A stretch of DNA of 45,162 bases from Promethearchaeota archaeon (GCA_019894975.1 JAGXNO010000032.1:1-45162), one strand, 5' to 3'; numbered from the stretch's first letter, positions 15,901 to 26,942 are shown. Notes: generated from the letters alone by a model not told the origin. A program made the numbers and translations.

Positions 15901-17037
15901 ATGTGTGCTGATAAAAGACAAGGTCCATTAAAAGAATGCGTGGAATTTATAGAAAAGCACAAACTGGAATATCTCAAAGAAGATAAACCTTATTCTTCAG
16001 ATCCAGAAGAAGAAACATTTGAAATTCAAGAAGATAAAATATTTGAAATCCCTAAATGCGATGACTTACATGTCAAGAATATTGGTTTTGTTGATGGGGG
16101 AAATGGACCCATTCTGAGAAGTGCAGATTTCAATATAAGCCTGAATCGTGTAGCAGGAGCATTATTCTCATCAAACCAATGGACTGAGCCTATTGATACA
16201 CCTGTCAAAATTGAGTTTTACAGCGCAACAGTTTTAGATCTTCTTGATGATGATTCATTAGCATATATTACTCGCTTTTTTCCAACAGAATCTCGATTCT
16301 CAGAGTATCTCCCTCATAATGAATTGAATTTTCCAATAAATGATCCCACTATTAGAGAAAAGGGATATCGATTACCGAATATTGACGTTTTTGGGGGAAT
16401 AGCTATGAGATTTGCTGAATGGACATATGCTAATAAATTTATTTCTACAGAATTGGATGAAGGAAGCATTTTTGTAAGAGATGGTTCACTCCAAACAGGA
16501 TATACTGGAGAGACTGAAATTGCTGAAAATCTATATAAAACTGCGATTAAAAAGGATGTTATAGTTACAGGACTCTCAAAAACATGTCGTTTAATAACAA
16601 AAACCGGTAATTCATTAAATTCACTCATTCATTATACCTCTAATAAAAAATTTCCAAATAATGCTTGGTATTACCATCCTATATATAGAATCACAAAAGC
16701 TCAAGAACAAGCTGATTTATATTTTGTAAAATTACAGAAGAATTCAAATTATTCTTTTCGATTTGATATATTATTAGATCAAGCAAAAAAAATTTCTAAA
16801 GACGAATGTGAAAAAATCATATCGAATATAGCTAATAATTCTAATGATCTTTCATATCCGGGATATCCTTATGGACTTATCAAGGTAGACCAACTTGCTG
16901 CTATTAGTGTTAAGGAACTTGAACCCCAGAAGATCCAATTAATAGCTGAATTTAATCAAGAGGATTATAATGAATTTATTTTACCGCGTCTTCGATCAGT
17001 AAATGCACATGATTTATTAAACGTAATAAGAAGATAA
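15901..17037 (+). CDS. nurA: DNA double-strand-break repair nuclease NurA
   Basis: GFVDGG, RFAEW, VRDGSL, GLSKT, GYPYGLIKVDQLA; directly upstream of herA-mre11-rad50. Confidence 0.88.
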   Translation: MCADKRQGPLKECVEFIEKHKLEYLKEDKPYSSDPEEETFEIQEDKIFEIPKCDDLHVKNIGFVDGGNGPILRSADFNISLNRVAGALFSSNQWTEPIDTPVKIEFYSATVLDLLDDDSLAYITRFFPTESRFSEYLPHNELNFPINDPTIREKGYRLPNIDVFGGIAMRFAEWTYANKFISTELDEGSIFVRDGSLQTGYTGETEIAENLYKTAIKKDVIVTGLSKTCRLITKTGNSLNSLIHYTSNKKFPNNAWYYHPIYRITKAQEQADLYFVKLQKNSNYSFRFDILLDQAKKISKDECEKIISNIANNSNDLSYPGYPYGLIKVDQLAAISVKELEPQKIQLIAEFNQEDYNEFILPRLRSVNAHDLLNVIRR

Positions 17038-17041
17038 TTTA

Positions 17042-18634
17042 ATGTTAATGGTGAAAAAATTGAGTGAATTAGGAAAAAAAATTGGTAGTTTTGTAACAGG
17101 CACATCTTTAGTAAAATTAATATTAAGACAGAAATCGGATCAAGAATTTGAATTAGGACAGCTTTTTATTGCTGGAAAAGATAATAAAAATTACAGCATT
17201 TATCAAATTAAAGACCTTTTCTTTGGAAGTCAAATTCCCGATAACGTACTCGAATTAATGGCAGGTTATGGACTAGAACGAGATAACAGTGACTTGAAAG
17301 TCTATGAACCAGAATTAAGAAATTATGTAATGGCCCTAGCAAGACCATTAATATATGTCAAAGAAAATGAATTATTCCTTCCTAAACGATTACCTAGTTT
17401 TTTTTCAGATATTTTCGATATTGACGACAATCATTTGGAATTTTTTAGGGAGAAAATAATCGAAAATCCTATAACCCTTGGAAAGATTCGTTCTGGATCT
17501 AAAGTTTTAAATACAGAAGTAAAACTGGAAGCAGATAAAGTATTAAGTCATCATGTTCTAATTCCCGCAACAACGGGAAGAGGAAAATCAAATTTAGTTA
17601 AGACAATCCTGTTTAATTTAATGGAAAATGATGAGTGTGGTAAGCTAGTATTTGATCCTCATAATGAATATTATGGGACTATTAGTCAGAAAGGGCTTAA
17701 AGATCATCCAAAGAGCATGGAGAATTTAAAATATTTTACAATAAGAGATATCCCTGGAAAATTAGATCTTAAATTCAACATAAAAAGTTTATATCCATCA
17801 CATGTAGTAGGAACTCTGAGTTTTAGTCCCCCTCAAAAAGATGCTTTATATACTTATTACAAGAAGTATAGAAGAGATTGGATAGAAAAACTATTTGATG
17901 AATTAACAAAAACCCCAGAGGGTATTCAAGATGTAACTATTTCGGTAATAAGAAGAAGATTAGCACTTTTATTAGATGTTGAGACAAATGAAGTAGGACA
18001 GATAATCAAGGAAAGAGGCATATTTACACTTAGTAGTCATGAGACTACAATTGACTCTATTATAAAATTCTTAATGGAAGGAAAAACAGTAATTATTGAT
18101 ACTTCATTATTTAGTAGCTCTGAAGAAATCTTTATGGCAACCATTATAGTTGATGGATTATTTAAAAAATATAAGAATTTAAAATATGAAGATAAATTAA
18201 TCGATAAACCAGTTATAACAATAGTTCTAGAGGAAGCTCCAAGAGTTATTGGTCAAAAAGTATTAGAAGCAGGGGAAAATGTTTTTGGAAAAATAGCACG
18301 TGAAGGAAGGAAATTTAAAATCGGATTAATCGCATTAACTCAATTGCCAAGTTTAATCCCACGAGAAATTCTAGCAAATATGAATACAAAAATTATCCTA
18401 GGGAATGAAATGGGCCCTGAAAGAGATATTCTAATAAAAAGTTCTGCCCAAGATCTTTCGGATGATAGTCAAGCAATAGCAAGTTTAGATATTGGTGAAG
18501 CTATTATTACATCGAATTTTACGAAGTTTGCAATCCCTATTAAGATTCCTTTATTTGATGATCTATTAACAGGCATAAAAAATGATCCGAAATCAGATAA
18601 AAAGATAAGAAAAGCATTTCCCGGTATAAATTAA
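17042..18634 (+). CDS. herA: HerA helicase/translocase ATPase
   Basis: N-terminal HAS-barrel-like region, HVLIPATTGRGKS (Walker A), VFDPHNEY, IVLEEAP (Walker B), IAREGRKF, TQLPS, LDIGEAII. Confidence 0.92.
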   Translation: MLMVKKLSELGKKIGSFVTGTSLVKLILRQKSDQEFELGQLFIAGKDNKNYSIYQIKDLFFGSQIPDNVLELMAGYGLERDNSDLKVYEPELRNYVMALARPLIYVKENELFLPKRLPSFFSDIFDIDDNHLEFFREKIIENPITLGKIRSGSKVLNTEVKLEADKVLSHHVLIPATTGRGKSNLVKTILFNLMENDECGKLVFDPHNEYYGTISQKGLKDHPKSMENLKYFTIRDIPGKLDLKFNIKSLYPSHVVGTLSFSPPQKDALYTYYKKYRRDWIEKLFDELTKTPEGIQDVTISVIRRRLALLLDVETNEVGQIIKERGIFTLSSHETTIDSIIKFLMEGKTVIIDTSLFSSSEEIFMATIIVDGLFKKYKNLKYEDKLIDKPVITIVLEEAPRVIGQKVLEAGENVFGKIAREGRKFKIGLIALTQLPSLIPREILANMNTKIILGNEMGPERDILIKSSAQDLSDDSQAIASLDIGEAIITSNFTKFAIPIKIPLFDDLLTGIKNDPKSDKKIRKAFPGIN

Positions 18635-18656
18635 TAAAAATTAATAAGGTTTGGAT

Positions 18657-19955
18657 ATGAAAATCAAATTTGCACATATTTCTGATGTTCATTTAGGTGC
18701 ATGGCGTAGTGAACGAATGAACAAATTAGGATATAAAGCATTCGAAGAAGTGGTCAATAACGTCATTAAGGAAAATGTAGATTTTGTTATTATTAGTGGA
18801 GATTTATACGATGTAAGCAATCCAAATGTAGAAGTTATAGATTTAGCTACAAGGGAATTGAAAAAATTAAAAGATCTTGAAATCCCCGTATATGGGATAA
18901 TGGGTTCACATGATTTTTCTCCGTCAAACAAATCAATGGTCAGACCTTTGATTACAGCAGGTTTATTTATAGATGTTTGGGATCCAGAGCTCGATGATGA
19001 TAATAAAATAAGATTAAATTTTCTTATAGATCCAAAAACGAACATCAAATTAACAGGTTTAAGGGCTAGAAAACGTAGTTTAGAGATAGAAGAATATCAA
19101 GAATTAGATAGACAAACTCTTGAGGCCGAAAAAGGACCTAAAATCTTCATTCTCCACACAATGTTAAGTGAATTAAAACCTAAAGAATTTAAAGACATGG
19201 AATCCGCTCCAAAATCCTTACTACCTCAAAATTTTGATTATTATGCAGGAGGTCATCTCCATAAACTACTTCCGGAAAAACTGAAGGTAGATGGAGTGAC
19301 ATTACAAGTCAACGAGAAAAATAACATAATATATCCTGGCTGCGTCTTCCCTACAGATTTCAGAGAGTTAGAAAGAGTTAAACATGGGGGATTTTGCTTG
19401 GTATCAGGTGAAATAAGAGGGGAAAAACTGGTTTTAAAAGTAAAATTCAACCCTGTTAAAGTAATCGATATAAGAAATATCGTTTTGAATTGTAACGATA
19501 AATCCGTTTCTGAAGTTTTAGATCAATTGAGACATGAGTTATCAAATCGAGATTGTCAAGATAAAATTGTAACAGTCAGATTATTTGGGATCCTATCTTC
19601 GGGTAAGACATATGATATAAAATCCAACGAACTTATTCAAAAGCTTAAAGAGAATGGTGCTTATGAGGTGTTTATTAATAAAAATGCTCTTACTACAGTG
19701 GAATATCAAGCAATAAGTGTATCAACTGGAGAAAGTAATGAAGAAATTGAGGCAACCCTAATAAAAGAGCATGCTAGCCAAGTAAAAATTAAGAATTTTC
19801 CAACTGATAAGATTGAAAAGAAGATTCATCAACTTCTCGTTTCCCTTGGATCAGAAAGGCAAATTGGAACAAAAGTAATGGATTACAATGATTCTTTGAA
19901 ACAAACATTTTTAAGCATTTTTGAAATCCATAAGACTAAGGAGCGGAAACAATGA
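18657..19955 (+). CDS. mre11: Mre11 nuclease
   Basis: HISDVHLG, SGDLYD, GSHD, ILH, YYAGGHLH, YPG. Stop overlaps the rad50 start (ATGA). Confidence 0.93.
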   Translation: MKIKFAHISDVHLGAWRSERMNKLGYKAFEEVVNNVIKENVDFVIISGDLYDVSNPNVEVIDLATRELKKLKDLEIPVYGIMGSHDFSPSNKSMVRPLITAGLFIDVWDPELDDDNKIRLNFLIDPKTNIKLTGLRARKRSLEIEEYQELDRQTLEAEKGPKIFILHTMLSELKPKEFKDMESAPKSLLPQNFDYYAGGHLHKLLPEKLKVDGVTLQVNEKNNIIYPGCVFPTDFRELERVKHGGFCLVSGEIRGEKLVLKVKFNPVKVIDIRNIVLNCNDKSVSEVLDQLRHELSNRDCQDKIVTVRLFGILSSGKTYDIKSNELIQKLKENGAYEVFINKNALTTVEYQAISVSTGESNEEIEATLIKEHASQVKIKNFPTDKIEKKIHQLLVSLGSERQIGTKVMDYNDSLKQTFLSIFEIHKTKERKQ

Positions 19956-22039
19956 TCCTAGAGTCAATTGAAATATCAAATATTAGAAGTATTAGGAATG
20001 AAGAAATAAAATTTCCTTCATCAACAATGTTGTTCTTTGGAGATGTAGGTAGTGGTAAGTCCTCAGTCTTGAAATCAATAGAATTTGCATTATTTGGGAC
20101 TTTAACTCACGCTGATTTAAGCGGAGATTCTCTTTTAAGAAGGGGAAAAGGCACTGCTTCAGTTAATTTAACATTTTTAATTGATGGTAAGAAATATTCA
20201 ATTAAGCGCAGTTTATCAAAAGATAGAAAGGGAAATGTTTCCCAAAAAGAATGTGTTTTTATTGATCATGATAATGGAACAAGTATTACTTATGCCCCTA
20301 CAGATATGCGCAGAAAAATATTGTCTCTGCTCTCATATTCTGTCCCTCGATATGAAAAAGCAACTAAGCTTCCCTTATTCAGATATACTGTATACACACC
20401 TCAAGAACAGATAAAAGAAATCATTCAAGCAGAACCAGATGATCGATTTGAGATTCTAAAAGAAGTTTTTGGGATTGAAAAATATGAAATTACGTTGAGA
20501 AATATAGATTTCATCAAAGATTTCCTAAATGATAGAGTAAAGGAATATAAGATCAGAATTGAGCAGATTGGTGATCCTGAGGAAAAAATTCTTCAGCAGA
20601 AGAAAGAAATAGTGCAAACAAAACAGAAAATTAGTAAAATTGAAAATGAAATTAGTACAAAAGAAAAGGATATAACTTCTCAAGAATTAGTTGTTGAAGA
20701 ATTTCAAAAAGATTTGGATAATTTTTTAAAAAAATTTGCACAAATTGAAAATAAGGAGTCCAATATCCTTGAATATAGAGCTAAACAAAAGAAAATTAAA
20801 ACTGCACTAAATAAAATTCAAAAAGAAATAGTTGAAAAAGAAGGAGAGTTAAAGGAATTAAAGGATATAATAATACCTACAAAACTTAGCGAAGCTCAAT
20901 TAGAATCTCAATTGGAACAATTACAAAATTTGAAGTCTCAAAAAGAAAAAGAGAGTGCTGTTGTAAAAAAAGTATTAGCAGACGTAGATAAATTATTGAA
21001 GGAAGGGAAATGTGCTTTATGTGGTCAAGCGATTCATGAGAAAGATAGATTTGAAAAGGAATTTCAAGAAGCAAAAATAAAAATAGGAAATCTTACAAAT
21101 GAAATCGATAATCTACTGTTAAAAGTGAATGAACAAAAGAAACTGCTTAAAATCAAACGTGAATCCCAGAAAGTTAAAAATAAAAAAGATTCGTTAAATA
21201 ATCTAATTTCAGAAAAGCAGAAAAGACTAACAGATTTGAATTCTCGAATAAATGAACTGTTTGTTAATATCAATAATAATCAAGAAGATATACTTACTAT
21301 CTTATCAAAATATAAAAATACCAACTTACTCAAATTTAAAGGCATGGGAGAAGAGATAAAAGTTAAACTTAAAACAGAAAAAAAAGCTCTAAATGAACTG
21401 AGCTTGGGAAAAGAATCATCTGGAAAAGAGTTAAGTGCCCAAAACAAAACTCTTGAATATTTACAGAAGGAACTAGCAGAAATAAATTCGAATATAGAAC
21501 TAAAAAAGGAAATACAAGGTGATTTAACCCATTACTCCCAACTTAAAAATTGGGTTGGCGAGGGATTCCCTGTGTTAATCAGAGATATCGAAAAAAGAAT
21601 ACTTTCCTCAAGTGCGCATCAATTTAATTCCTACTTTAAAGAATGGTTTCATGAATTAGTAGAAGATAGAAATATTGAAGTTGAGATTAAAACTGATGAT
21701 TTCCAACCTATCATTCATGTTAACGGTTATGAATCACCATTCAAAGACTTATCTGGGGGAGAAAAAAGCGCTCTTTCTTTAGCTTATAGATTAGCTTTAA
21801 ACAAAATTATTAATGAGAGATATCAAGAAGTAAAAACAAAAGGTCTTCTGATTTTAGATGAACCAACAGATGGTTTCAGCCAGCAACAAATTAATCGAAT
21901 GCAGCCTATATTTGAAAAATTAAATACTTCTCAAATGATAATTATATCTCATGAAAGAAATCTTGATTCGTTCGTAACTGACATATTTCATTTTCAGAAA
22001 GAAAATCACATTACCAAGGTTAAAAAAGAAACTAGCTAG
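19952..22039 (+). CDS. rad50: Rad50 ATPase (short coiled coil)
   Basis: NIRS, GDVGSGKSS, Q-loop YTPQEQI, coiled coil with Zn hook CALCGQ, LSGGE, LILDEPT, IIISH. Confidence 0.94.
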   Translation: MILESIEISNIRSIRNEEIKFPSSTMLFFGDVGSGKSSVLKSIEFALFGTLTHADLSGDSLLRRGKGTASVNLTFLIDGKKYSIKRSLSKDRKGNVSQKECVFIDHDNGTSITYAPTDMRRKILSLLSYSVPRYEKATKLPLFRYTVYTPQEQIKEIIQAEPDDRFEILKEVFGIEKYEITLRNIDFIKDFLNDRVKEYKIRIEQIGDPEEKILQQKKEIVQTKQKISKIENEISTKEKDITSQELVVEEFQKDLDNFLKKFAQIENKESNILEYRAKQKKIKTALNKIQKEIVEKEGELKELKDIIIPTKLSEAQLESQLEQLQNLKSQKEKESAVVKKVLADVDKLLKEGKCALCGQAIHEKDRFEKEFQEAKIKIGNLTNEIDNLLLKVNEQKKLLKIKRESQKVKNKKDSLNNLISEKQKRLTDLNSRINELFVNINNNQEDILTILSKYKNTNLLKFKGMGEEIKVKLKTEKKALNELSLGKESSGKELSAQNKTLEYLQKELAEINSNIELKKEIQGDLTHYSQLKNWVGEGFPVLIRDIEKRILSSSAHQFNSYFKEWFHELVEDRNIEVEIKTDDFQPIIHVNGYESPFKDLSGGEKSALSLAYRLALNKIINERYQEVKTKGLLILDEPTDGFSQQQINRMQPIFEKLNTSQMIIISHERNLDSFVTDIFHFQKENHITKVKKETS

Positions 22040-23397
22040 ATTTCTGAATTTAATGGTTCCCCACACTTAGGGCATCTTTTAGTGGAGGGGGAACATAGTA
22101 ATCCACAGAAATGACAAGGAGTTCTTGTTACTTTTGTTTCATTGATATCTAACATCTTTAATTGTGTTATAACCTTAGATTTCGATATATCTCTTTTTAT
22201 CTTCCTCGTTGGTGAGAAAATCTCATGGATAACAACATTTCCATATTTTCCTACGTGTACTTCGACTTTGTTTTTGTAACCTAATGTAAGATATCCGTTT
22301 ATAATTTCTACCGTCGAGTTTTTTGTTAAATTCTCATCTTGAAATAATCGTTTCCTTATTTCATCATTCCATATAACAACGCGAACAATTCCAGATTGAT
22401 CTTCTACCATAAAGGATGCAAAGGAGCCTTTTGAACCATCAGCTCTTTCAAAACTGTGTCTCTTACCTACTTCTTTCACTGTTCCAATAATATTTATACA
22501 TTGAAGATCCAGATCATTACTAATCTCTTTTACTCTTGATTTCTGAGATATCTTACTTTTGTAAATTTTATTAAGGAAGTGTATCAAATGAGGGAATCCA
22601 CTATATGAAGAAGTAAAATAGTCTTTTAACTCAGAAGTAGACATCTTTTTATGCAAACCCCCTAATTCTAATAGGCTAAAAAGAAATATGACAAATTCTT
22701 CTCGAAGTTTTTCATATTTGGTGATATAATATCCCGTAGTCCTAAAAACGATAGTTTCCTCGAAATACCCATTCAAATCCTCAATTTTTCTTACTATCTC
22801 ACTCGTCTCTTTTATTTTTTGTCCAATGTGTAGAACCCTCGTATCTGTAAAACTCTTATTAAAATATATACAAGTGTAGAACCCAATTTTAAATACCGCT
22901 TTTGAAAATTCTTTCTTCGCAACATTCTGGTTTTTTTCTCCGAGACTTTTATCGAGGTGATACAAACCTCTAGCTAAAATATCATCAAAATCAAATTCTA
23001 AGCTTTTAATATTTGGCAATTGATCTCGAATATCCTTCCCATAGAGCAACGTAGAGTTTTTAGGGTATTTAATATCTAGTATGCTCCATTCATAATTTGA
23101 AAATGATTGTGATCTGAACAAGTCTTTAGTTTGATATCCTTCCAATGAGTTAAAACCAATCCATACCTCTTTACCTTCTATCTTTCTTTTTAAGAACTTT
23201 ATCTCAGTCCAATCAACCTTAGGAAATCTCTTTAACGATTTCACAATTACAATGATGTCAATATCATTATTCTCCCATGAGCTTGGAATTTCCTCATCGA
23301 AATAACTTCCTATTCCATAAATTGCAACGATATCTTCTTTATACCTTGCAATTAGATCCTCGAGAACTATCTTTATAACAGTATCTTCTTTACTCAC
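22036..23397 (-). CDS. Pol-beta-superfamily nucleotidyltransferase + helical domain + RPA/SSB-type OB fold + Zn ribbon fusion
   Basis: IYGIGSYF-x11-DIDIIVIV and LLYGKD (MNT-like). INIIGTVKEV..FERADGSKGSFASFMVEDQSGIVRVVIWND..VEVHVG (archaeal RPA OB). C-terminal CHFC..CPKCG. Confidence 0.78.
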   Translation of the reverse strand: MSKEDTVIKIVLEDLIARYKEDIVAIYGIGSYFDEEIPSSWENNDIDIIVIVKSLKRFPKVDWTEIKFLKRKIEGKEVWIGFNSLEGYQTKDLFRSQSFSNYEWSILDIKYPKNSTLLYGKDIRDQLPNIKSLEFDFDDILARGLYHLDKSLGEKNQNVAKKEFSKAVFKIGFYTCIYFNKSFTDTRVLHIGQKIKETSEIVRKIEDLNGYFEETIVFRTTGYYITKYEKLREEFVIFLFSLLELGGLHKKMSTSELKDYFTSSYSGFPHLIHFLNKIYKSKISQKSRVKEISNDLDLQCINIIGTVKEVGKRHSFERADGSKGSFASFMVEDQSGIVRVVIWNDEIRKRLFQDENLTKNSTVEIINGYLTLGYKNKVEVHVGKYGNVVIHEIFSPTRKIKRDISKSKVITQLKMLDINETKVTRTPCHFCGLLCSPSTKRCPKCGEPLNSEI

Positions 23398-23455
23398 TAA
23401 AATCAGTAAACTTGTTAAATTTCATTGGAAAATGGTTGGATGGTATTAAAAAATC

Positions 23456-24142
23456 CTATATTTTAAGAACTTGACTTGCTATCATATCAGCTACATGAAT
23501 TAAAGATGCTAGTTCATTCATTTCTTGTGGAAGGTATTTGCTCCAACTTCCATGATGGAAAATTATACCAATATACATCTCATTATCGAATAATGATTTA
23601 TGCTCACTTAAATATTTTTTAATAACTGCGATGGCGTTTTCTACGTGTCTGTCTTTCCCTGTTAAATTGAACTTCTCCCAAATTTCTGAACGAATAAGGT
23701 CAGCTTCATCGAAAGAGATTTTAATCCTTCTTTCTCTCACCTTAAGCTTAGTACTATAATAAGAAATTTTACCAAAATCATGGCAAATCGCAGTTAATAT
23801 AACTTTTTTTAGCCAAGATTGATCCTTTAGAGATTTGCAGATATAATAAGCATAATTAACTACTAATAGTGTGTGGTCGAATAATCCACCTGGATAAGCT
23901 CCATGAAAGTTCCCCAATGCGGCAGGTAACGATTTCATCTCATTGAGGATAATAATTAGCTCTTTTCGAGTAGTCTCATCAACCTCAACAGTATCAAAAA
24001 AGAAATTAAAGTCGTACAGTGGAATAACAACTAATTTAGTAATGTCCTTATTGATAAAGGGATCACCAGAGGTCTCTTGGTTTTGCTGATGTGAGCTAAT
24101 GAACTCCATTAATGATGTACTAGAATTTTTCTTCTCTTCCAT
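23456..24142 (-). CDS. Stand-alone HD-domain phosphohydrolase (YhaM-like catalytic domain, no OB fold)
   Basis: PAA..FHGAYPGGLFDHTL, AICHDFGK, H, FHHG, IHVADM; AGGGA SD. Confidence 0.85.
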   Translation of the reverse strand: MEEKKNSSTSLMEFISSHQQNQETSGDPFINKDITKLVVIPLYDFNFFFDTVEVDETTRKELIIILNEMKSLPAALGNFHGAYPGGLFDHTLLVVNYAYYICKSLKDQSWLKKVILTAICHDFGKISYYSTKLKVRERRIKISFDEADLIRSEIWEKFNLTGKDRHVENAIAVIKKYLSEHKSLFDNEMYIGIIFHHGSWSKYLPQEMNELASLIHVADMIASQVLKI

Positions 24143-24260
24143 ATCCCTATAATAACTCTTTTCTTATTTAAAAAAGAAGACTCATACAATTTTAAAGGTG
24201 AGGATTAACCAGAAAATAATTAAGTAATTTACTTCTAGTTTTCTTTTAAAGTAATTTAGC

Positions 24261-26429
24261 TCATTTACTTGTTTTTTTCTTTTTTAATAATTTATCTGCA
24301 GTTTGAAAAAGTGATTTTTGAGGACTTTTTGCCACTTTTTTTGTCCGTTCTTTTGAAGATCCGACATATACTGAGGATTTTTTATATACTCCAGGATTCA
24401 ACTCTGAAATAAACGGGGATGTTCTTAAAGTTTGGAATCCTCTAAAACCCTTCATGACAGAGGGAGATATTAGATATAGTTGATCTTTCGTTCGTGTTAC
24501 AGCTACATAAAAAACACGACGTTCTTCTTCAAACCCTTCCATATCTCCTTTTACTCTGGAAGAAGGAAAAGAATCTTCACATAACATTGGTATAAATACT
24601 ACTCTCCACTCGAGACCTTTTGCTCTGTGGATAGTAGACAGTATTAAGGGTTTTTCTTCTTCTTTCTGACTTCCTGCTAAAACTGTTTTAGATTCCAAAT
24701 TGGATATGTTTAGACTTAAATTCTCTAACAATTTACGTATGGTTGGAAAATTTTTGGCATAGATACTTAACTGATTTAAATCATCTAATCGATCTTGCCA
24801 ATTATCATATTTTGCTTTAATGTAATTGGTTAAAACTGCTATTAATTTTTTAATTATCTCAGAAGGGGGATCTTCTGAGGTTAATCCTTCAAGATTCTTG
24901 ATATGCGATATAGTATTTTTTATTCCTTCTTTGGGTATTTTAGATCCTTTTAACTTTTCAGTAAAGAACATCTGGTCTTTTAGTGCATCAACAGGATTCT
25001 CAACTTTGGATATAACGTCAAAGATTTTTGTTCCTGAAGTAGTACCTATTCCTTGAATAATGGAAAAAACACGAGACCATGAAATTTCATCAAATGGGTT
25101 CTCTATTATCCGTAAATGAGCTATCATATCTTTTATATGAGCTTTTTCAAAAAATGCAACTCCTGCTCTTACTTCATATGGAATATTTTTATTTCTAAGT
25201 TCAAGTTCAATTCGTAGAGTGTGAAAACCAGCTCGGACTAGAATAGCTATATCTTCTAAGAGAATACCTTCTGATCTTAATTTCAAAATCTGATTAGCTA
25301 TAAATCCTGCCTGCTCCCAATCATCTCCCACGTTAACTTGAAAAGGCTTTATTCCATTAGAACGAGTTGCTCGCATCAACTTCTTAAATTGATTCACGTT
25401 ATGAAGAATGGAATTATTAGCTAGAGCCAATATTTGTGGTACACTCCTATAATTATAGGTAATAGTATATCTTTTACAGTCCTTATATTTTTTTTCGAAA
25501 TTTAAAATATTCTGGAAATTGGCTCCACGAAATGCATAAATACTTTGAGCGTCGTCTCCTACAGCTATAACATTATGTTCAGGATTTTGTTTTACAATTT
25601 TATATATTATTTCATCTTGAATATAGTTAGTATCTTGATATTCATCAACAAGTATATATCTAATATTTCGTGCGATTAATTGGGCAACTGATCTTTCATC
25701 TAATAACTGATTCCAATATATTAGCAAATCATCAAAATCAACTAAATTATCCTGAGCTTTTTTCTTTCCATAAATTTTAAAGACTTGCTCTAATTTTTTA
25801 ATTACATCTTCCTTATCATATTGAGAATACTTCCAAAGAATTACATCTCGGATTGCTTTATTACAATTAATCGAATAAGACAAGATCGATTTTGCCATTC
25901 TAGAATTAGGAAAGCGTTCTCCAATTTCTTTCACATCTGCTTTCTCAATTGAAAGTTTCATTAGTGCTCTAGCATCCGTTTCATCCATTATTGTATAATT
26001 TGCTTTCAAACCAAGTGTCTTTGCATATATTCGAATAAATCTATTTGCAATCGAATGAAAGGTACCACCCCATATCCCTTTTGGACGCTTCCCAAGTAGA
26101 ATTTCTACTCGTTTGATCATTTCGTTAGCAGCTTTATTTGTAAAGGTAACTAACATGATCTGACTAGGTTTTACACCAGAGGATAATAGTTTAGCAACGG
26201 AATAAGTGATTGTTCTTGTTTTACCACTTCCTGCTCCTGCAATGACTAACATCGGTCCTTTTATATTATTGATGATCTCAAGTTGTTCATCGTTTAAATC
26301 TTCCTCAAAATTGACTTTCTTATATTGCTCTTGCTCTTTTTGTATTTCCAATTCTAAGGATTCAGTATAATCATCATCATAGAACTCAAATACATATTCT
26401 TCTGCGGAATCTTCTTCTTTTGAATTCAA
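24261..26429 (-). CDS. SF1 UvrD/PcrA/Rep-type DNA helicase
   Basis: LNDEQ, AGAGSGKT, TFTNKAA, TFHS, LVDEYQDTN, VGDDAQSIYAFRGA, NYRS, STIHRAKGLEW, EEERRVFYVAVTR. Confidence 0.95.
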   Translation of the reverse strand: MNSKEEDSAEEYVFEFYDDDYTESLELEIQKEQEQYKKVNFEEDLNDEQLEIINNIKGPMLVIAGAGSGKTRTITYSVAKLLSSGVKPSQIMLVTFTNKAANEMIKRVEILLGKRPKGIWGGTFHSIANRFIRIYAKTLGLKANYTIMDETDARALMKLSIEKADVKEIGERFPNSRMAKSILSYSINCNKAIRDVILWKYSQYDKEDVIKKLEQVFKIYGKKKAQDNLVDFDDLLIYWNQLLDERSVAQLIARNIRYILVDEYQDTNYIQDEIIYKIVKQNPEHNVIAVGDDAQSIYAFRGANFQNILNFEKKYKDCKRYTITYNYRSVPQILALANNSILHNVNQFKKLMRATRSNGIKPFQVNVGDDWEQAGFIANQILKLRSEGILLEDIAILVRAGFHTLRIELELRNKNIPYEVRAGVAFFEKAHIKDMIAHLRIIENPFDEISWSRVFSIIQGIGTTSGTKIFDVISKVENPVDALKDQMFFTEKLKGSKIPKEGIKNTISHIKNLEGLTSEDPPSEIIKKLIAVLTNYIKAKYDNWQDRLDDLNQLSIYAKNFPTIRKLLENLSLNISNLESKTVLAGSQKEEEKPLILSTIHRAKGLEWRVVFIPMLCEDSFPSSRVKGDMEGFEEERRVFYVAVTRTKDQLYLISPSVMKGFRGFQTLRTSPFISELNPGVYKKSSVYVGSSKERTKKVAKSPQKSLFQTADKLLKKKKTSK

Positions 26430-26648
26430 AATAATACCTAAGGATATAATTTATATATTTAGTAGTAGGTTGATTAGTTCAAGATCTCATGATTAATAAT
26501 TTTGTCTTTTATTATCTTGTATTATTATTTCAGTGATAATTAATATTGGTTTAAGTAATCAATGATTTATATCAAAACTCTCTGCAAATTTTTCTAATAG
26601 AAACCGAAGATTTATCTATAATAAATTACAGCTCTTTCATTATTAATA

Positions 26649-26942
26649 TTATACAAGCCCTACAAATATTTTAAACGCGGCCGTTTCGTCTCCTTCGTCA
26701 ATTGAATGAATCATGAAGCTAATATCATGTTTATCCCTTATGTGCAGTGCTGTTTGAGAAGAAACAAACTTCATTCTTGTAGAAGTATTATCTCCTTGCC
26801 AAACCCAGACATTTCTCTCATGAACATCGACAAATAGTAGGATTTTATTCGAATCCAATAACTCGAATAAAGGGACATTTTCTACTAATACTGTTTCTTC
26901 AAAATCTCCTAATTCTTTATTAAATTGATAAGTAATGATCAA
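26649..26942 (-). CDS. Single-domain gelsolin-like protein (Asgard actin-regulator type)
   Basis: LLDSNKILLFVD...VWVWQG..TSTRMKF..SQTA..IRD...IHSIDEGDETAAFK matches the gelsolin repeat consensus L.S...filD....vW.G......ek.......i......EG.E...F. Confidence 0.8.
   Translation of the reverse strand: MIITYQFNKELGDFEETVLVENVPLFELLDSNKILLFVDVHERNVWVWQGDNTSTRMKFVSSQTALHIRDKHDISFMIHSIDEGDETAAFKIFVGLV

Follow-up and report, generated by a model that had tools for sequence, protein, structure and literature searches.

A recurring gene pair of an HD phosphoesterase and a nucleotidyltransferase beside the Mre11-Rad50 operon of a Promethearchaeota archaeon

Which of the genes that converge on the NurA-HerA-Mre11-Rad50 operon of a Promethearchaeota archaeon belong together in one system? 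The question is raised by a stretch of 45,162 nt (GCA_019894975.1 JAGXNO010000032.1:1-45162), referred to below as the window. Three of its genes lie on the minus strand and encode a UvrD/PcrA-like superfamily 1A (SF1A) helicase (P0003, 722 amino acids (aa), 24261..26429), a short stand-alone HD phosphoesterase (P0002, 228 aa, 23456..24142) and a nucleotidyltransferase (NTase) which continues into an OB fold and a zinc ribbon (P0001, 453 aa, 22036..23397). They are separated by gaps of 118 nt (24143-24260) and 58 nt (23398-23455), and the NTase gene is convergent with the operon (15901..22039, plus strand), the palindrome CTAG being common to the rad50 stop codon TAG (22037-22039, plus strand) and the NTase stop codon (22036-22038, minus strand). 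A preliminary description of this DNA had joined the three genes into one new module. Its open reading frames (ORFs) and both gaps were reproduced with exact coordinates by our ORF calls, the overlap of stops that it reported corresponds to the palindrome at 22036-22039, and its assignment of UvrD, HD, NTase, OB and zinc-binding domains and of the operon was upheld by Pfam and NCBIfam matches, conservation and fold; NurA, HerA (DUF87), Mre11 (Metallophos) and Rad50 were all recovered by domain search. The common orientation of the three genes is unremarkable alone. We have therefore relied on the comparison of related loci. All genomes compared were metagenome-assembled genomes (MAGs), and the counts of presence and absence come from samples.

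A short HD gene (encoding 222-252 aa) was found directly before the NTase gene, in the same orientation, in five genomic contexts. Context A is that of the window, with the HD gene and the OB-bearing NTase gene between UvrD and Rad50, and is shared by L061, L064, L105 and a JGI contig. In context B (genome G002, locus L062, and L104) the pair is located between NurA and alba, on the side of the operon opposite to UvrD. The neighbours are phosphoglycerate dehydrogenase and P-type ATPase genes in context C (L063, L102 and L106) and two acyl-CoA dehydrogenase genes in context D (L071 and L100), and context E is represented by L085. Neither UvrD nor Rad50 is near the pair in contexts C, D and E. 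The identity to the window proteins declines in parallel over the contexts, the HD going from about 75 to about 40% and the NTase from about 74 to about 44%. The spacer between the two genes (58 nt in the window, 23398..23455, minus strand) measures mostly 38-60 nt across the genomes and 149-156 nt in L100 and L105; the run of six T residues 3' of the HD stop in the window is not kept in the relatives.

The two activities are also joined in a single chain. The locus L088:9977-11512 encodes one protein of 511 aa with the NTase core followed by the HD, and its HD part was aligned with the profile of the short-HD family by hhalign with a probability of 100 (E 1.7e-57, 43% identity). In a sample of 301 genomes drawn evenly from the phylum (68 from one GTDB family and 233 from outside it), every short HD (in G000, G307 and G171) adjoins an NTase gene; a long form of the HD with 331 aa does so in none of the examined loci. 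Adjacent pairs in related genomes do not count as independent events. As judged from these comparisons of sequence, the HD and the NTase form a genuine, recurring and self-contained two-gene module. A gene encoding 220-235 aa and belonging to no named family lies 3' of both the L088 fusion (L088:12990-13697) and the L104 pair (L104:3468-4130); the two copies are homologous, and in some lineages this gene may act as a third partner.

A further feature of the pair is the sequence that precedes it. An element of about 75 nt 5' of the HD start (24143..24219, minus strand), with the pattern TATTTTCTGGTTAAT-N7-TTTAAAA...CTT...TTTAAATAAG, is near-invariant in nine loci, which represent contexts A, B and C and the locus L103 with a lone HD. 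A second TATA-like box is found at 24164-24173, i.e. 22-31 nt before the HD ATG. Since the element is shared across contexts A-C, the cassette appears to carry its own promoter-like region; in the window this region lies between the UvrD stop and the HD start, downstream of the UvrD gene. The pattern matched once in the 3.9-Mb genome and the reversed control pattern did not match at all, so that there is no sign of a regulon. The Rfam search over 21900-26700 found no RNA family, and the element is thus not a known riboswitch. A scan for sigma-70 promoters was set aside, the host being an archaeon.

The NTase core (aa 1-290 of P0001, 22528..23397, minus strand) was delimited from alignments, an AlphaFold2 (AF2) model and structural matches. 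Its residues G30-S31 and D45-x-D47 are invariant in alignment A1 and conserved to at least 90% in alignment A2, and R143, Y146, H147, K166 and K170 are near-invariant in the helical bundle. The core thus has the GS...DxD motif and the head followed by a helical bundle that mark the Pol-beta superfamily, although no curated family reached its threshold: the only Pfam match was that of 3 of 22 members to PF18765 (Polbeta), at 16.8-18.7 bits where the cut-off is 26.9, PF01909, KNTase_C and DUF4111 did not match above threshold, and neither did any Pfam or NCBIfam resistance model match. Sequence-profile searches of the PDB with the NTase (A1) and HD (A3) alignments gave nothing meaningful, the NTase had no match in PHROGs, and the feature matches in the ESM Atlas were generic HD and NTase clusters only. 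The AF2 model of P0001 made with an alignment of 69 rows had a mean confidence (pLDDT) of 88, and that made from the single sequence (pLDDT 35) was unusable. Residues 1 to about 265 take the fold of the two-domain nucleotidyltransferases, with matches to ANT(3'')(9) (7uy4, Z 12.6 over 218 aa), AAD(9) (6sxj, Z 11.5), KNTase (6nlt, Z 9.9) and HalB (9dbh_A, Z 11.5 over 191 residues, root-mean-square deviation 4.5, Foldseek E 2e-5). HalB makes oligodeoxyadenylate without a template (review PMC13434031); enzymes of this fold are thus able not only to adenylylate small molecules but also to polymerise DNA and to make DNA signals.

The same core occurs fused to various modules: OB plus zinc ribbon, SNase plus CARDB, an Exo5-like region, TFIIB repeats or an N-terminal extension of about 65 aa. 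P0069 (481 aa) combines it with two TFIIB/cyclin repeats and P0254 (547 aa) with an Exo5-like PD-(D/E)XK region. In P0338 (L068:8588-10852, plus strand) a signal-like N-terminus, an SNase, CARDB/Ig-like domains and one transmembrane helix precede the core; this membrane-spanning arrangement was also found in P0040, P0047, P0241 and L016:8279-10267. A signal-like segment at the N-terminus and basic residues after the second hydrophobic helix suggest that the nuclease of P0338 is extracellular and its NTase cytoplasmic; here the accessory domain resembles a sensor or an anchor more than a co-acting nuclease. Divergent homologues of the core (26-36% identity) are encoded at L114:4247-5879 and L115:4258-5861 among dense, co-oriented, small unannotated ORFs together with a DNA methyltransferase, a ubiquitin-like gene and LPD1, in clusters that look like mobile elements or viruses. 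A conserved partner of about 240 aa is encoded upstream of the divergent NTase in both; these genes (237-244 aa) were considered as HDs of the short-HD family and ruled out.

In the window, the core is followed by an OB fold (aa 295-395, 22213..22515, minus strand) and a C4 zinc ribbon (C428-x2-C431...C442-x2-C445, 22054..22125, minus strand). The OB fold matched PF01336 (E 4.4e-6) and, over residues 283-388, the replication factor A models of NCBIfam (best E 1.4e-13), shares 31-42% identity with the OB of the RPA genes of about 580 aa in genomes of the same genus, and resembles SSB and RPA OB folds in structure (Z about 12), which bears out its earlier description as RPA-type. The aromatic residues F316, F329, W343 and Y369 are conserved, and the four cysteines of the ribbon are present in 31-33 of the 34 OB-bearing homologues. 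The closest relative outside context A, the NTase of G002 (68% identity), has 295 aa and no OB, and the sequence after it holds no OB or zinc-ribbon remnant. We conclude from these matches that the OB/Zn module is RPA-derived and optional, and the OB fold probably binds single-stranded DNA (ssDNA).

The HD protein P0002 matched PF01966 (E 2.9e-7, 31.2 bits against a cut-off of 22), as did all 32 members of its family. H80, D89, H90, H121-D122, H166, H196-H197 and D219 are invariant in alignment A3. Beyond the generic HD model, only DNA-cleaving HD families were matched, namely TraI_2 (the HD of MobH relaxases, 12 of 32 members) and Cas3_HD (11 of 32), all below threshold; the Cas3 HD model TIGR01596 gave 19.2 bits for P0002 (cut-off 43.45), and PF18019 remained below threshold. 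P0002 is also similar to phrog_5889, a phage HD family of unknown function (E 1.2e-15). The examined loci showed no cas genes in the neighbourhood of the HD. To judge from its residues, the protein carries the full H..HD..H..HH..D set and resembles the DNA-cleaving Cas3/MobH HDs. The long form of 331 aa (L051:8245-9240, minus strand, and 16 other genomes of the genus) is a paralogue or an orthologue of the short HD with an extra N-terminus of about 105 aa, in which the conserved H-D-C-x-D-[YF]...F-C-[KR]-H makes up a SWIM-like zinc finger. Its neighbours are two acyl-CoA dehydrogenases, i.e. the same neighbourhood as that of the HD-NTase pair in L071 and L100.

The UvrD gene behaves differently from the pair. 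P0003 matched UvrD-helicase (E 5e-74) and UvrD_C (E 2.6e-51), contains both Walker A GAGSGKT and DEYQD, and scored 446 bits in NCBIfam as PcrA/UvrD (under the equivalog cut-offs of pcrA, uvrD and rep). The gene is single-copy. It was found in 23 of 24 other genomes of the genus at 72-83% identity and throughout most of the order at 36-43%, and its upstream neighbours are constant (a gelsolin-like 97-aa gene, a 122-aa gene, a 273-aa CxxCxxCC protein and a 703-aa protein). In G002, G005, G011 and G012 it adjoins the NurA/HerA/Mre11/Rad50 operon with no HD or NTase in between. This synteny holds over the whole genus, with three or more orientations (L058 in G011, L059 in G012, L060 in G005 and L013/L057 in G002); the genes UvrD-NurA-HerA-Mre11-Rad50 are all co-directional in G011, and the order in G005 is NTase(DUF4037)-UvrD-HerA-NurA-Mre11-Rad50. 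A review of NurA (PMC13748450) makes no mention of a link between UvrD and the archaeal resection operon. Many UvrD orthologues were flagged as having one in-frame TAG inside, which was discarded as a sign of interruption: since the ORF of G005 is an uninterrupted 711 aa, the TAG is probably where the gene naturally ends, and the alignment overruns into a Lys-rich tail. The slot between UvrD and Rad50 is a variable site gathering nucleic-acid enzymes. It holds a DnaQ/RNase_T-type exonuclease in G012 (L059:8180-8728, minus strand) and an MBL-fold hydrolase in G002 (L013:258-1046, plus strand), and the HD-NTase cassette occupies it here. The full order UvrD-HD-NTaseOB facing Rad50 was found only in the window and the four other assemblies of context A, and because these are close relatives (63-82% protein identity) it counts as one event.

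Another NTase gene has its own tie to UvrD. A DUF4037/NTP_transf_2 NTase of 355-363 aa is encoded intact about 10-16 nt upstream of UvrD in L061, L064, L105 and G005 (Pfam-supported ORFs L061:5906-6973, 355 aa, and L060:9028-10101). The window retains a remnant of about 150 nt of the 3' end of this gene (26492..26648, minus strand), a translated match with five stops at the syntenic place, which blastn aligned at 71-74% identity over 102-148 nt (E 1e-12 to 2e-17); the intact gene was lost in G000. Its position directly 5' of UvrD in the relatives indicates that a second, unrelated NTase was ancestrally coupled to UvrD; hhalign, used with a single query sequence, detected no similarity between it and the A1 family.

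By synteny, UvrD is best taken as an ordinary conserved neighbour of the Mre11-Rad50 operon outside the HD-NTase module: it is a single-copy core gene, syntenic with the operon in genomes that lack the HD and the NTase, and the pair exists elsewhere without it. The preliminary description had held that genes unlinked in related genomes would speak against its proposal; such unlinking was observed for UvrD but not for the HD and the NTase. What survives of the three-gene module is thus the HD-NTase functional pair, on account of its five contexts, the L088 fusion and the upstream element, and UvrD drops out.

The two families are practically confined to a single GTDB family of Asgard archaea, where their occurrence is patchy. 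In the phylum sample, the NTase profile matched in 20 of the 68 genomes of the family and in none of the 233 others, and the HD profile in 25 of the 68 with one weak partial match outside. When 1.84 billion representatives were searched exhaustively by profile, only 105 proteins with the NTase core were returned, 45 of them with E below 1e-30. A genome may have up to three NTase copies (G021). The long HD form is carried by the majority of the window's genus, where its context is conserved and unrelated, and those genomes have no NTase. The contig L093 (DATKTW010000034.1), filed as 'Candidatus Nanopelagicaceae bacterium', has the Asgard rpoB/TFE/NTase synteny of a dozen Promethearchaeota MAGs and is probably mis-binned.

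We tentatively propose, with a probability of roughly 45%, that the unit is an HD and an ANT/KNTase/HalB-like NTase under their own promoter-like element which act as an ssDNA-directed pair for the transfer of nucleoside monophosphates (NMPs) and hydrolysis. The OB/Zn module would dock the NTase on ssDNA, e.g. on the 3' tails produced by the adjacent NurA-HerA-Mre11-Rad50. With its intact catalytic motif, the NTase would then move NMPs, without a template, to an acceptor at the ssDNA, which would most likely be a DNA 3'-OH or a primed oligonucleotide as in HalB. The HD, which also has its catalytic residues intact, would hydrolyse the product of the NTase or trim the ssDNA. The two proteins may bind each other physically, may contribute to break repair, and would together make up a write/erase or tail/trim pair.

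Several observations weigh against this proposal. Short HDs without an adjacent NTase occur in L098 and L103, so that the partnership is facultative. (A 227-aa gene 3' of the short HD in L098 was tried as a candidate NTase and ruled out on examination.) Conversely, the NTase is present without this HD in many genomes, including 13 syntenic loci beside rpoB/TFE; in genus g14 it was found in 9 of 27 genomes, as against 1 of 27 for the HD, as a stand-alone protein of 295 aa whose neighbours, rpoB and TFE-alpha, are constant. It may be that local rearrangement, and not independent insertion, links contexts A and B, in which case the closeness of the pair to the repair operon may be one historical event. 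The best structural matches of the NTase include small-molecule adenylyltransferases. With the topology predicted for P0338, its SNase and its NTase could not work on a common DNA substrate; this weakens a pure 'cut and tail' reading. Finally, the genes are carried by one GTDB family only, all of whose genomes in our comparison are MAGs. Three overlapping readings are conceivable, namely a housekeeping or regulatory write/erase pair, a break-repair accessory and a conflict system with swappable nucleases.

In the last of these, the NTase would be the constant regulator or sensor of a defence module, like MntA or HalB, the HD, the SNase and the Exo5-like PD-(D/E)XK nuclease would be exchangeable effectors, and the OB/Zn module would sense the ssDNA of an invader. 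We consider this possible but doubtful. It would account for the patchy distribution of the NTase within the family with its multiple copies in G021, for the many genomic contexts, for the HalB-like fold (Z 11.5), for the affinity of the HD to Cas3_HD and the phage HD family, and for the divergent NTase homologues in mobile-element-like clusters with a DNA methyltransferase and LPD1. In G003 (L014:10692-13386) a full-length NTase-OB gene is followed by an AAA_15/AAA_21/DUF3696 ATPase gene and a 317-aa gene, a grouping which is typical of defence loci, and an RVT_1 gene lies in the neighbourhood of L103. However, no PADLOC model matched the NTase and the HD gave weak Cas3-HD matches only, neither a HalA-like membrane partner nor an HEPN partner is present, the 13 loci by rpoB/TFE offer a stable housekeeping context, and context A is syntenic over five assemblies. 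No convincing terminal repeats were found around the cassette, where short AT-rich matches only were seen, and no integrase flanks it. In the reading as an accessory of double-strand break (DSB) repair, the HD would clean or trim blocked 3' ends and the NTase-OB would extend resected 3' tails by a few nucleotides, in cooperation with NurA-HerA-Mre11-Rad50 and UvrD. Comparable combinations are the phosphoesterase and polymerase of LigD and the PHP and Pol-beta domains of bacterial PolX. The RPA-type OB fits this role, the UvrD-Rad50 slot is filled by an RNase_T exonuclease or an MBL-fold protein in sister genomes (G012 and G002, respectively), and three arrangements place the cassette or the NTase by the operon, at the Rad50 end (context A), at the NurA end (G002 and L104) and two genes from NurA in L070, a more distant genome whose NurA has 51% identity. 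Yet most members of the family are encoded far from the operon, the majority of the genus genomes have the operon and UvrD and lack the NTase, the NTase has no finger and thumb domains of templated polymerases, and the upstream element is not repeated regulon-wide. On balance we regard a dedicated DSB accessory as unlikely.

A broader idea, which we judge quite unlikely, would treat the NTase core as a modular output enzyme of one Asgard family: an accessory sensor, on binding, would trigger it to make a nucleotide or oligonucleotide signal or a DNA tail, which the HD would degrade. The sensors would be the RPA-like OB/Zn for ssDNA, the membrane-anchored SNase/CARDB ectodomain, probably extracellular, and the TFIIB repeats for promoter complexes, and if this were true, the pathway in the window would report or process ssDNA arising from NurA-HerA-Mre11-Rad50. 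That UvrD, HD and NTase-OB are one three-gene system has in its favour the same orientation and short gaps, the order kept in five assemblies, and the DUF4037-type NTase directly before UvrD in three relatives. Synteny has already largely refuted it, as UvrD is a core gene beside operons without HD and NTase (G005, G011 and G012), the pair does without UvrD in contexts B-E, the promoter-like element stands between UvrD and the HD and moves with the HD, and the five trios of closely related assemblies reduce to a single event; we consider it very improbable. Least probable of all, in our view, is that the NTase adenylylates an antibiotic or a metabolite in the manner of ANT, AadA or Lnu and that the HD next door is unrelated. 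The best whole-domain structural matches, ANT(3'')(9), AAD(9) and ANT(4'), do point in that direction, but their identity is 11-16%, the Pfam and NCBIfam resistance models were silent, the core recurs in fusions with OB/Zn, nuclease and TFIIB modules and with the HD, and the adjacency of the HD is conserved.

The proposed ssDNA-directed HD-NTase pair can be set beside several characterized systems. With the ANT/KNTase-type enzymes (ANT(3'')(9)/AadA, AAD(9) and ANT(4')), the NTase shares the Pol-beta head bearing GS...DxD and the helical bundle after it, and differs from them in the low identity (11-16%), the restriction to one family, the fusions to OB and zinc ribbon, HD, SNase or TFIIB, and the lack of any pointer to an antibiotic substrate. 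HalB of the Hailong system (9dbh) has the same two-domain fold over 191 residues at 12% identity; the partner here is an HD, and no HalA-like membrane protein is encoded beside the NTase in the HD-linked loci. In the type VII toxin-antitoxin system MNT-HEPN, the partner is again different: no HEPN match was found by PADLOC or Pfam, and R143-x3-H147 in the helical domain of the NTase is off the canonical Rx4-6H spacing.

A transferase and an HD are combined in one chain in GlnD (reversible nucleotidylation), RelA/SpoT (alarmone turnover) and the class II CCA-adding enzyme (RNA 3'-end repair). The likeness lies in an NMP or pyrophosphate transferase accompanied by an HD that reverses or repairs its product, and the L088 fusion shares the NTase-helical-HD order of GlnD. 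In contrast, the present proteins are not members of these families by sequence, the HD has the extended H..HD..H..HH..D set with Cas3/MobH affinities, and the usual form is two genes with the HD first. Archaeal RPA likewise has an OB and a C4 zinc ribbon; here, a single OB sits on an enzyme and scores 50.8 bits against an equivalog cut-off of 362, and the genome has a separate RPA gene of 579 aa. The HD motif pattern and the weak, recurrent profile matches recall the Cas3''/MobH HDs, although the scores are below the cut-offs and neither a helicase fusion nor a CRISPR-Cas or conjugation context was found. YhaM, a 3'-5' exonuclease, also holds an OB and an HD within one functional unit; in our case the OB is on the NTase, the HD is bare or has a SWIM-like N-terminus, and the YhaM models did not match. 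UvrD matched the GajB profiles of PADLOC (E 3.7e-86), which reflects generic SF1A similarity, but it scores better as PcrA/UvrD, in contrast to Gabija no GajA/OLD nuclease was seen among the examined flanks, and UvrD has a gelsolin-like gene and the HD as neighbours. The PADLOC check envisaged in the preliminary description thus yielded nothing for the NTase, a weak Cas3-HD for the HD and a generic GajB for UvrD. This agrees with its opinion that no described module is involved, as does the literature searched, where neither the HD-NTase pair nor a link of the NTase or the HD to the NurA operon is described. The folds are already known, and the combination of an NTase and an HD has precedents in GlnD, the CCA-adding enzyme and RelA/SpoT. 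The novelty lies in an NTase family that is uncharacterised and restricted to one lineage, in the HD partner dedicated to it, in the fusion of the two, in a targeting module of RPA origin and in the promoter-like element that travels with the pair.

The three-gene proposal is hereby reduced to a well-supported and testable two-gene module. The narrow phyletic range limits the present weight of the finding; Asgard archaea are, on the other hand, the lineage closest to the eukaryotes. If the NTase acts as a modular output enzyme, the module would represent a new damage-signalling or DNA-end-tailing pathway in archaeal relatives of eukaryotes. An NTase predicted to be tethered to ssDNA beside the Asgard resection operon is a plausible way into unknown DNA-damage processing, signalling or defence in these organisms.

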